Sequence record: NC_054928.1
Direction: 5' to 3' (one strand)
Source of the DNA: Escherichia phage vB_vPM_PD112
DNA length: 64,000 bases
This document shows, piece by piece, positions 1,331-53,181 of this stretch. Position 1 is the first letter of the stretch. Each line of letters starts with the position of its first letter. Under the pieces are notes generated by a model. It was not told the DNA's origin and did not search any database. It saw only the letters and a list, made by a program, of their open reading frames with translations. The translations under genes and the position numbers were made by a program.

Positions 1331-1340
1331 TATTTATTCC

Positions 1341-2253: not shown

Positions 2254-3578
2254 TTGATTTCCTCTAAATCTTTGGTGTATTCGGTAACTACATCAGTAGT
2301 TTTCCAATATTCGTTTTCTTCTTTTTTAGCTTTAGCTTCTTCAGCAAGTTTCTTCGCTTCATCGGAAGTCATATGAAAAATATTCATTCCAACTAGTTTA
2401 TCAACATAAGAAGAATACATATCGATTTTCGAAAGTTCTTCGGTCAGTTCTTTACGAGTTTTACCTTGTACAACAATTTCACCTGAAATTACTTTCTTAA
2501 TGAAATGTGCCTTGGCAAAGGCTAAACGAAAAGCTGATTCAGTTTCTTTAATTTTGTTATCAATTCGTTTTTGAACATAAGTTTTACGAACTTCAACAAA
2601 GTCTTTAATTAAATCAACTACGTTATCGTAAACTTGCAGCTTTCCTTTCTCATTAATGACTGTAATATTCTGAGAACGACGCTCAATCAATCCAAAGTCT
2701 TTCATAATTTTTGCATGGCGTTCTTCTTCGTTATCGCTCAAAGAATATTCTTTACGGAATTTAACTTTAAAGCCAAAACCATGCTCACCGCAAGCATCAT
2801 CCCATGTAATGAAGCCTTTATCTTCAAGCGGGTCTAAGATTTTACTCACATAAGTTTCACGATCATACTTATACGGAATCTCAGTGATATTCATTTGAGT
2901 TCGTGAAGTAAACTTGTACGTTCCACGAATTTCATATTGACCGTCAATTTCAACGACTTCACCGCGAAATTCTGGGAATTCTACCTTCGGTTTAGTTACT
3001 TTCTTTCCTTGAAGAGCTTGTAGTACAGCTTTCTTGACAGAAGAAACACTATGAGGAAGAATGTAAGTTGCATAACCAGTTGCAATACCGGAAACACCGT
3101 TAAGAAGAACAGTAGGAATAATAGGCAAATAGAAAGCAGGCGGAATGTGTTCTTTATCTTGATGTACCGGAGCATATTCAGTATCTTTATATACGCTATA
3201 GAAATTTTTACTTACACGAGCAAAAATATAACGACTTGCTGCTGCTTTTTGAACGGTACGAGAACCAAAGTTTCCTTGACCATCTAACAAAGGAAAGTTA
3301 TTATTCCAAGTGTTAGCCATCAAAGCCCCCGCATCTTGTGCGGAGTTTTCACCATGATGATATCCAAGGTCAGCTACACCACCTGCAATAGAAGCGAGTT
3401 TGTGAAACTTATCTTTATTTCCTCGCGCCAAATCAAGAGCTCGAGCAATAACAAATCGTTGAACTGGCTTAAATCCATCAATCATATTTGGAATAGCACG
3501 ATTTTCAACCGTGTACATAGCATAAGCCAGTGCTTCATTATCAATGATACTTTTTAAATCGCGATTATTCAGTTGCAT
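2250..3578 (-). CDS. 52: DNA topoisomerase II medium subunit (GyrA-like)
   Basis: 442 aa, the T4 gp52 length; GyrA-like N-terminal region; ATG start. Confidence 0.95.
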   Translation of the reverse strand: MQLNNRDLKSIIDNEALAYAMYTVENRAIPNMIDGFKPVQRFVIARALDLARGNKDKFHKLASIAGGVADLGYHHGENSAQDAGALMANTWNNNFPLLDGQGNFGSRTVQKAAASRYIFARVSKNFYSVYKDTEYAPVHQDKEHIPPAFYLPIIPTVLLNGVSGIATGYATYILPHSVSSVKKAVLQALQGKKVTKPKVEFPEFRGEVVEIDGQYEIRGTYKFTSRTQMNITEIPYKYDRETYVSKILDPLEDKGFITWDDACGEHGFGFKVKFRKEYSLSDNEEERHAKIMKDFGLIERRSQNITVINEKGKLQVYDNVVDLIKDFVEVRKTYVQKRIDNKIKETESAFRLAFAKAHFIKKVISGEIVVQGKTRKELTEELSKIDMYSSYVDKLVGMNIFHMTSDEAKKLAEEAKAKKEENEYWKTTDVVTEYTKDLEEIK

Positions 3579-10190: not shown

Positions 10191-10722
10191 TACTGGCTCA
10201 TCCATTCTTTACGAAGGTCAGCATTATCTCCCATGAGCATTTCAAAAAGCTCTTTCCAATTCTCAGGAAGTTTAACAACATCATATACTGGGTTTTGAAT
10301 CATCTCACGATATTCAGATTTTTCCAAAGAGCCAAGTCCCTTAATATAACGGATGCTATGTTTAGGTAGAGCATCTTTGGCACTCTCATATTCAGCGACT
10401 GTATAAAACCATTCTTGTTTTTTGCCGACCTGAGCGATGATTACAGGAGTTTTGACAAAGCGAATTCTTCCTTGTTCAAACAGTTCTGGCCAATTACTAA
10501 AAAATCCGAGCAGAGAAGGATAAATAGAACCTAATCCAATAATCTCTTAATTATGAGGTATTTCTATAGATAGCCCGAAGGCTATCCATCGTGATCTGCG
10601 TCTGTCATAATAGCGACATTCGCATAGTTCATTGAAGAGGATTTAATAGAACGACGAACATTGTTCTGCAATTTATATTTTTTCATATCAACGCTAGAAG
10701 AATCAATTTTTACAAATTTCAT
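10190..10722 (-). CDS. 60: DNA topoisomerase II subunit gp60, made by 50-nt translational bypass
   Basis: Codons 1-46 at 10722-10585 (MKFVKIDSS...TDADHDG), then UAG; decoding resumes at UUA 10534 (LGSIYPSLLGFFSNWPELFEQGRIRF...MSQ) to stop 10190-10192; 160 aa total as in T4. Confidence 0.95.
10535..10584 (-). other. gene 60 coding gap (ribosome bypass element)
   Basis: Take-off GGA 10585-10587, stop UAG 10582-10584, take-off hairpin UAGCCUUCGGGCUA, landing GGA 10535-10537. Confidence 0.9.
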
Positions 10723-21013: not shown

Positions 21014-21196
21014 TTATTTTACCCAGGGAGCCCAGGGCGGAGGGTCAAGATGGTATGAAGCTAGTTCTTCTAGAAGAGCATCTGGGGCTTCAATTCCATA
21101 ATTCTGTAATACTATACGGTATTCTTTCTTATAATCACTAGAATCATTCTGGATATTCGTAGAATGATTATCTTCTAACATCTCAAATAAATCCAT
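21014..21196 (-). CDS. hypothetical protein, 60 aa
   Basis: Track ORF, ATG start. Confidence 0.45.
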   Translation of the reverse strand: MDLFEMLEDNHSTNIQNDSSDYKKEYRIVLQNYGIEAPDALLEELASYHLDPPPWAPWVK

Positions 21197-21204
21197 ATTA
21201 ATTC

Positions 21205-21675
21205 CTAGCGATAAAAACCAAAATAACGATTAGCTTCAATAATCTTTCTTTCTTCTTCGGACATTCTCCAGCGTAGTCCAACGTCAAAATGAGCCCAGAC
21301 CATCTTAACAAATGCATGTATATCTTTAATATCTTCAATAATGAATGTTTTACTTTTAAAAGGTTGACTCGCTAATTTAACTTTATCATCTTCAAACAGG
21401 TCAAAAAGACCATATTCATGAGCTCTTTTATAGCCTTTAATAGTTAAAGCTTCAGAAGAAGAAAACGGTGAATCAGTATTCTGCAAAATATCTTCAGTAT
21501 GCTTTATAATTAGAATAACATTTTCTGGATATTTTCTTTCTTTTATATCTTTAATTAAAATATCCGGATTTTCTGCTAAAGGAATAATCAATGAGCACTT
21601 TTTATCAAGTGTATTTACTGATTTACCTTCTTTAGACATAAATTCTATTGAATAATGTTTTGCTACTTCAATCAT
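21205..21675 (-). CDS. hypothetical protein, 156 aa
   Basis: Track ORF, ATG start. Confidence 0.5.
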
Positions 21676-21832
21676 GTGATTTCCTCTTGCCTACTAACGG
21701 GCCGTCAGGAATTTTGTTTTCCTGGATATATTTCTCATTTTCTTCCATCATTTTACTACCGATTTTAAGAAGCAAATCCAATGCTTCATTTGCTTTAGCC
21801 TTGGCCTCTTCTAACGTCATATCTCTGTTCAT
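21668..21832 (-). CDS. small protein, 54 aa
   Basis: Hand-translated [31 protein letters not shown]...; fills gap between track ORFs. Confidence 0.35.
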
Positions 21833-22032
21833 GATTTATCCCCATAGATGTCTCTCATCAATTTAAGAGCTGAGCGTTCTAGTTTCTTTTCTTTCTCAGC
21901 ACTAATCATTGATTTCATCCATTCTTCTGATTCGTTCTGCATTTCTTTATTTGCTTGTTCAACCCAACCATCGTCAATGTACATTGAGTTTGGTCTATTG
22001 AACCATTCAAACATTTTCTTCAGAACTTTCAT
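21829..22032 (-). CDS. hypothetical protein, 67 aa
   Basis: Track ORF, ATG start. Confidence 0.45.
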
Positions 22033-23386: not shown

Positions 23387-23425
23387 AATAAACTCCTTTA
23401 TTGTTTAATTACAAGTGTATTTATA

Positions 23426-25163: not shown

Positions 25164-25262
25164 TCATTTATTGCAGCAAAAAATGAATTATACAATTCAT
25201 CATATGTATTTGATAATAATACTAACACGTTTTGCGATAAATATTAATTTAAAGGAGGACAT

Positions 25263-25463
25263 ATGGTACAAAAATTAATGACACTTGTTAATGCCATCAA
25301 AGGTAATAAGAAACGTATAGCTTTTACTATTTCTGCTATGATAGGAATTTTACTTTGGAATTTTGTTTTATCGCCAGTTGCTATTGCTCATGGCGTTAGT
25401 ATTCCAGTAATTACTCTTGATACATTCGTAGATTTAGCGTTTGCTTTAGTTGGGTTAATTTAA
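25263..25463 (+). CDS. small hydrophobic protein on the plus strand, 66 aa
   Basis: Fills the only sizeable gap between dam and 61; strong SD AAAGGAGGA 5 nt before ATG; two hydrophobic spans. Confidence 0.45.
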   Translation: MVQKLMTLVNAIKGNKKRIAFTISAMIGILLWNFVLSPVAIAHGVSIPVITLDTFVDLAFALVGLI

Positions 25464-53139: not shown

Positions 53140-53181
53140 AATAAAACCCTTACCTTGAATAGATAAGGGTATTTATTATTT

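Follow-up and report, generated by a model that had tools for sequence, protein, structure and literature searches.

dam.1, a conserved small gene convergent with primase gene 61 of T-even phages, has a putative late promoter and a predicted inner-membrane product

The plus-strand open reading frame (ORF) at positions 25263 to 25463 of the 64-kb stretch of Tequatrovirus DNA analyzed here (the window) is a homologue of dam.1, an already known and annotated but uncharacterised gene of T-even phages. The substitution patterns show that purifying selection acts on its protein product, and the gene is syntenic across eight genera. It is thus a real gene, and we consider it likely that it is transcribed late from a variant promoter and that its product is a membrane protein, with, as our best guess, an accessory role at the cell envelope. 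The late timing, the membrane topology and the role are what we infer, the topology and the function from amino acid composition and a structural model. A real plus-strand gene with late transcription was also the interpretation of a sequence-only reading of the window, and it is supported by the comparisons described here, with late expression deduced from the promoter-like sequence. The ORF itself is not a discovery, since it is already annotated, as dam.1 in T4T, as RB69ORF029w, and as "hypothetical protein" in hundreds of genomes.

The features of the locus, in window positions, are the following.

25236 to 25243, plus strand: putative variant T4 late-promoter box GATAAATA (consensus TATAAATA at -13 to -6)
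25251 to 25259, plus strand: Shine-Dalgarno sequence AAAGGAGGA, with a 3-nt spacer to the ATG
25263 to 25463, plus strand: coding sequence (CDS) of the dam.1 homologue (PHROG 2024), 66 amino acids plus stop, with the ATG at 25263 and the TAA at 25461 to 25463
25460 to 25463, both strands: 4-nt convergent overlap of CDS ends, formed by the dam.1 TAA (25461 to 25463) and the minus-strand stop of gene 61 (25460 to 25462)

The predicted product, read from the window sequence, is MVQKLMTLVNAIKGNKKRIAFTISAMIGILLWNFVLSPVAIAHGVSIPVITLDTFVDLAFALVGLI (66 amino acids). The start and stop codons given for this ORF by the sequence-only reading were verified, as was the strong Shine-Dalgarno sequence that it had placed in front of them. 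The ORF is housed, as claimed, on the opposite strand in the gap of 305 nt that separates the start of dam (25154) from the end of the minus-strand primase gene 61 (25460). The reported overlap of the two stops is also real: the stop codons interlock, with 2 nt in common, and the two CDSs share 4 nt. Among the 75 CDSs annotated across 43 kb in the matching record ON229909, dam.1 is the only one on the opposite strand, in agreement with its description as a lone plus-strand ORF in a minus-strand region. The ATAAATA motif noticed about 25 nt upstream, and likened there to a T4 late promoter core, lies at 25237 to 25243 on the plus strand; counted from the A of the ATG, its first and last bases are 26 and 20 nt upstream (19 nt in between), and the core is kept in relatives. 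The same gap contains, on the minus strand, a sigma-70-like promoter facing dam (25187 to 25216; TTATCA, 18-nt spacer, TATAAT; 10 of 12 matches). An early promoter of dam, P(E)17.40, is annotated as putative in this intergenic region in X01416, a record of 1984, and its -35 element is back to back with the late box.

Chance ORFs of 40 to 72 codons are frequent in the AT-rich region around dam.1 according to the window ORF list, so the length of this ORF alone is not beyond chance, and it is conservation that gives it significance. An open frame that arose by chance, or as the shadow of a minus-strand gene, and that is not expressed would also fit the fact that the -2 (in-register antisense) frame is open in T4 and that the T4 reference records NC_000866 and AF158101 leave the ORF unannotated. 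However, the ORF list contains no minus-strand ORF of at least 30 amino acids in the gap between dam and gene 61, and the -2 frame has stops in 13 of 27 sequences, including the window. Moreover, it is the plus strand that carries the conserved protein sequence, as well as the ATG, the Shine-Dalgarno sequence and the promoter box. We give hardly any credence to an unexpressed chance frame, and its shadow-ORF version is ruled out by the stop-codon counts.

A comparison of 501 bases around the ORF gave 100% identity with Escherichia phage vB_EcoM_CE1 (ON229909), where the ORF is annotated as a hypothetical protein, and ca. 95% identity with T4. In T4T (HM137666) it is dam.1 (protein ADJ39749.1), and other names are RB69ORF029w, RB32 ORF030w and VR7ORF033w. 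The protein matches the profile of PHROG 2024, a family of unknown function, with an E value of 3.1e-30, residues 2 to 66 being aligned to profile positions 1 to 65 of 65. All names retrieved were "hypothetical protein," apart from isolated cases of "Holin," "putative head morphogenesis protein" and "putative membrane protein" and some carry-overs from neighboring genes. Sequence searches of Pfam, NCBIfam and PDB gave nothing beyond a chance-level match to NqrE (E value of 0.87). A Foldseek search of BFVD with the model returned only family members (that of OE5505 and, weakly, a 63-amino-acid protein of Enterobacter phage CIP9 and another 63-amino-acid protein), helical 66-mers carrying little fold information. 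In an HMM search of 1.84 billion cluster representatives, only 6 clusters matched, while a profile search of 5.8 billion proteins gave 124 matches, of which all the named ones came from T4-like phages and were "hypothetical" except for stray automated labels. These exhaustive and profile searches confine the dam.1 family to T4-like phages of enterobacteria, and scans of IMG/VR added few further loci. No homologue with a tested function was found in Pfam, NCBIfam, PDB, BFVD, or the HMM and profile searches. Neither "dam.1" nor "RB69ORF029w" occurs in the papers searched, and the text of the CRISPRi-ART and HIDEN-SEQ papers does not contain the locus.

By tblastn, the protein was detected in 691 phage records, with identities of 83 to 100% within Tequatrovirus and 46 to 55% in Mosigvirus and Gaprivervirus. 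In every one of these loci, including those without dam, it abuts gene 61 on the opposite strand. Weaker tblastn matches led to syntenic plus-strand ORFs of 63 to 74 amino acids in Dhakavirus, Gelderlandvirus, Marfavirus, Mosugukvirus and Jiaodavirus, which are likewise convergent with gene 61 and all match PHROG 2024 (E values of 1e-24 to 1e-28). In relatives, then, dam.1 is found on the opposite strand next to the 3' end of gene 61, with either gene 56 or dam on its other side. The 4-nt overlap with gene 61 is also found in T4, Mosigvirus, Dhakavirus and Marfavirus; elsewhere, the ends overlap by 21 nt (PM2) or are separated by small or large gaps (SEA1, PSE-D1 and VR7). In the locus of Salmonella phage PSE-D1 (L038), the converging dam.1 homologue and gene 61 have between them, just after position 1305, a GC-rich hairpin, aaggggctttggcccct, that resembles a terminator acting in both directions. 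The window has no such hairpin.

The upstream segment is variable. Some Tequatroviruses have no dam, so that gene 56 adjoins, and others carry a 186-amino-acid ORF between dam and dam.1, with dam.1 and its promoter box intact despite this variation (loci L003, positions 1053 to 1613, L024, L026, L027 and L030). Escherichia phage vB_EcoM_ESCO47 (OM386662; locus L040) has two diverged members of the family in tandem between gene 56 and gene 61 (2501 to 2704 and 2697 to 2894, plus strand). The first, of 67 amino acids, is of the Dhakavirus type and the second, of 65 amino acids, of the Mosigvirus type. Their reading frames have 8 nt in common. With one shared CATAAATA box ahead of the first copy, they would form a two-gene late operon. 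From its sequence, this pair suggests the existence of two functionally distinct dam.1 subfamilies.

The pattern of substitutions is that of a protein-coding gene. Within genera, the dN/dS ratio was mostly 0.1 to 0.25 (Nei-Gojobori, informative pairs among 22 distinct coding sequences). For instance, the window and T4 copies differ by 9 synonymous and 6 nonsynonymous changes (ratio of 0.18), and those of two Mosigviruses by 13 and 6 (ratio of 0.13). Between genera, pS was near saturation (0.55 to 0.8) versus a pN of ca. 0.33. The variable sites at first, second and third codon positions numbered 10, 2 and 15 in one genus, 6, 0 and 14 in another and 8, 3 and 11 in a third, that is, with an excess at the third position in all three. 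The dam.1 frame was open in all 27 sequences from the eight genera, while the five other frames accumulated from 19 to 204 stops in total. Residue identity across genera was 18 to 50%, with M1, W32, N33, P38, G44 and P48 invariant in all eight, and either GGAGG or AGGAG precedes the ATG in all lineages. Conservation of the frame across T-even phages was the point on which the sequence-only reading could have failed. These relatives keep the frame and the protein as well as the Shine-Dalgarno sequence and the ATAAATA core, and the reading therefore stands.

Late promoters of T4 have the consensus TATAAATA, placed at -13 to -6 (PMC1524935). Its least conserved position is the T at -13, single deviations (especially there) are present among the listed T4 late promoters, and late transcripts can be of either polarity (PMC2988020; PMC1524935). 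The box upstream of dam.1, GATAAATA, matches this consensus at 7 of 8 positions, the mismatch being at -13. Miller and colleagues are said to have listed 50 T4 late promoters in 2003. With the published -13 to -6 placement, transcription of dam.1 would start at ca. 25249, giving a leader of ca. 14 nt (PMC1524935). All intact loci of Tequatrovirus, Mosigvirus and Gaprivervirus have the ATAAATA core at a distance of 16 to 22 nt from the ATG, within upstream sequences of five unrelated kinds; the base in front of the core is G, A or C. In the dam.1 boxes of these three genera, the T expected at -13 from the consensus was never seen. Given this absence and the fact that the box of SEA1 is ATTAAATA, the dam.1 promoter may be weak. 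The core was also present in four of the five more distant genera, and the boxes there were AATAAATA, TATAAATA, GATAAATA and CATAAATA.

In the window as a whole, ATAAATA is 8-fold depleted, with 5 copies on both strands versus 40 ± 5.6 expected, and the full TATAAATA occurs once versus 10 expected. Three of the five copies of the core are upstream of genes, namely, soc, gene 49 and dam.1, and soc and gene 49 are known late-expressed genes. The motif scan placed the other two boxes as follows.

23418 to 23425, minus strand: TATAAATA box before soc
53170 to 53177, minus strand: AATAAATA box before gene 49 (endonuclease VII, beginning MLLTGKLYKEEKQKF), followed by the hairpin cccttatctattcaaggtaaggg, with A at -13

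As the late-promoter core has been purged from the early-gene region, nearly every remaining copy may be functional. Its depletion elsewhere, together with its being the only conserved island upstream of dam.1, is strong indirect evidence, from sequence, for a putative gp55-dependent promoter. The gene 49 box has A at -13, like the boxes of some dam.1 relatives. The two remaining copies are of another kind. One (GGATAAATAG; 10520 to 10526, plus strand) is intergenic in the gene 39 region and is followed by only a 6-codon ORF and the hairpin gatagcccgaaggctatc (ca. 10570 to 10587); judging by its sequence context, it may mark a further antisense late start or have arisen by chance. The other (AATAAATA; 1331 to 1337, minus strand) directly abuts an ATG (gaggAATAAATAATG) and, by coordinate mapping to ON229909, is inside the motA coding region, so it is probably an unavoidable coding occurrence. 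A T4 dRNA-seq study reports 22 antisense start sites (bioRxiv 10.1101/2024.04.04.588121).

No plus-strand terminator motif was found after dam.1 between 25400 and 27100, and a dam.1 transcript would therefore run antisense into the 3' end of the primase gene 61. This leads to a different explanation, in which the function resides in the RNA: the late promoter would drive transcription antisense to gene 61 and against the region of the dam early promoter, silencing these early genes late in infection, with the ORF being incidental. The widely conserved convergent 4-nt overlap with gene 61, the lack of a terminator motif downstream and the location of P(E)17.40 on the other strand of the same intergenic region (X01416) are all compatible with it. 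However, antisense RNA alone would not keep the frame open in 27 of 27 sequences, the dN/dS ratio mostly at 0.1 to 0.25 or the residue identity at 18 to 50%. Neither is the overlap obligatory, as ca. 200 nt (VR7-type phages) or a GC-rich hairpin (Jiaodavirus) can precede gene 61. Since there is constraint at the protein level and the overlap is absent from the VR7-type and Jiaodavirus loci, the antisense effect cannot be the main selected function, and we regard an RNA-only explanation as very unlikely. Antisense transcription may have a side effect alongside the protein.

Returning to the protein-coding gene, we analyzed its predicted product, which can be divided into three segments.

25263 to 25316, plus strand: residues 1 to 18, N-terminal helix (2 to 13 in the model) and basic patch KGNKKR, predicted to be cytoplasmic
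25317 to 25388, plus strand: residues 19 to 42, predicted transmembrane helix (16 to 42 in the model) with the invariant W32, N33 and P38
25389 to 25460, plus strand: residues 43 to 66, C-terminal tail with the invariant G44 and P48, acidic, without K or R and with a short hydrophobic helix, predicted to be periplasmic

The AlphaFold2 model (pLDDT of 74.6) has helices at residues 2 to 13, 16 to 42 and 52 to 62, and the Kyte-Doolittle maximum over 15 residues (2.05) falls at residues 27 to 41. The window protein has five K or R residues before the membrane helix and none after it. Its one convenient tryptic peptide is LMTLVNAIK (LMALVNAIK in T4), and the absence of K and R from the other 48 residues would account for the protein escaping shotgun proteomics. 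Along similar lines, the first 18 residues contain four or five in all nine family members examined, and the tail after G44 has one to three acidic residues and no K or R in eight of the nine (PSE-D1 has one). By the positive-inside rule, this asymmetry predicts a single membrane span with the N terminus inside and the C terminus outside. Composition and the medium-confidence model thus predict that dam.1 is a bitopic inner-membrane protein in this orientation. Membrane helices are driven to associate by polar Asn residues, and the invariant Trp-Asn pair, which lies midway along the predicted membrane helix, would be expected to make contacts with another copy of the protein or with a different membrane protein.

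The same composition could be read as a Sec signal peptide, with residues 1 to 42 cleaved after A-x-A (40 to 42) and a 24-residue hydrophobic peptide (HGVSIPVITLDTFVDLAFALVGLI) freed, either into the periplasm or into the outer leaflet of the inner membrane. Read by eye, the segment does combine a basic stretch with a hydrophobic core of 18 residues, and it has Pro at -5 and small side chains at both -3 and -1 (A-I-A); in the nine aligned members the residue at -1 is always A, S or T and that at -3 is A in eight. The exception is Mosigvirus, with L at -3. Moreover, with its 18 residues, its helix and its good conservation within lineages, the region before the hydrophobic core would be an unusual n-region, and the invariant W32-N33 within the supposed leader argues that the segment is functional in itself. 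We consider cleavage unlikely and an uncleaved membrane span more probable.

Taken together, we propose the following sequence of events. Late in infection, RNA polymerase carrying gp55 would start at GATAAATA (25236 to 25243), producing an mRNA with about 14 nt of leader and a strong Shine-Dalgarno sequence. The 66-residue product would insert into the inner membrane, with its basic N-terminal helix in the cytoplasm, one span (about residues 19 to 42) and the short acidic and hydrophobic tail in the periplasm, and the Trp-Asn pair would mediate helix-helix association with itself or another membrane protein. There, it would act as an accessory, dispensable modulator of late envelope events. 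As to which events, lysis timing or lysis inhibition is the most plausible guess, albeit a tentative one with perhaps a modest chance of being right; late superinfection exclusion seems rather doubtful, and membrane-linked prohead assembly quite improbable. A wider version is speculative and also rather doubtful. In it, dam.1 would be an overlooked late inner-membrane factor of enterobacterial T-even phages whose Trp-Asn helix acts on the holin/antiholin pair or on another envelope process, while the convergent transcript also lowers gene 61 expression late in infection.

Two disrupted copies are relevant to dispensability. The T4 mutant clone T4_7t1 (OL964745; locus L031, ca. 600 to 700) has, relative to T4, a 2-nt deletion in dam.1 and a 4-nt deletion in the spacer between the Shine-Dalgarno sequence and the ATG. 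In this record dam is also split, and the changes are either a real loss in a viable laboratory mutant or sequencing errors. The dam.1 copy of ECCR664 is disrupted as well. Both hint that dam.1 is dispensable, sequencing error being possible.

T4 is a reference organism, and a conserved gene missing from NC_000866 goes uncounted in studies based only on annotation. For instance, a T4 transcriptome and proteome study tallied only the features of NC_000866, so dam.1 was left out (PMC9697503). Adding it to the reference would allow existing strand-specific RNA-seq, dRNA-seq and transposon data to be reread at no cost. In itself, dam.1 is one more uncharacterised small (predicted) membrane protein, of modest value unless it has a lysis, exclusion or assembly phenotype; the useful points are the omission from the T4 reference, the conservation in at least eight genera and the conserved late-promoter box. 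Another annotation problem was seen in the CE1 record, where three small CDSs (ON229909 147246 to 148064; ca. 21020 to 21838 in the window) are labeled "molybdenum ABC transporter ModA." They are just upstream of the ADP-ribosyltransferase genes, which the same record labels modA, and the labels look like a misannotation by name collision.

Among known systems, the closest are the named members of the family. dam.1 of T4T, RB69ORF029w, RB32 ORF030w and VR7ORF033w are the same gene, with 46 to 100% identity and the same position, orientation and length, and only point substitutions differentiate the window copy from its named PHROG 2024 relatives.

Class II holins and pinholins (e.g., S21 of phage 21) have ca. 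65 to 75 residues and two hydrophobic helical segments, as does dam.1, and T4 already has the holin T. That dam.1 is itself a holin of this type could be argued from the size of the family members (63 to 74 amino acids), the two hydrophobic helical segments and the names "Holin" (one UniRef entry, the OE5505 homologue) and "putative membrane protein" in a few records. Unlike these holins, dam.1 lacks a charged cytoplasmic C-terminal tail (of nine members, eight have no K or R there and one has a single such residue) and linkage to a lysis cassette, as its neighbors in all loci are dam or gene 56 and gene 61, with no endolysin or spanin gene. It also has no holin match in Pfam or NCBIfam, and the holin label was assigned automatically to one entry, as against hundreds named "hypothetical protein." We therefore rejected the holin reading on the grounds of tail charge and gene context, and consider it highly improbable.

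A different group of similar size is formed by Imm, Sp (spackle), the RI antiholin and Ac of T4, which are membrane or periplasmic proteins with accessory functions at the cell envelope. The family profile, run against all ORFs of the window, including imm, sp and ac, found no paralogue of dam.1 below an E value of 0.1, which rules out paralogy with the other small T4 membrane proteins encoded there. The timing also differs, as imm and sp are early genes while dam.1 has a late-type promoter. In this respect, dam.1 resembles soc and gene 49, the T4 late genes within the early region: all three are short and have a TATAAATA-type box near the start codon. However, soc and gene 49 share the strand of their early neighbors, whereas dam.1 lies on the other strand, in convergent orientation with gene 61.
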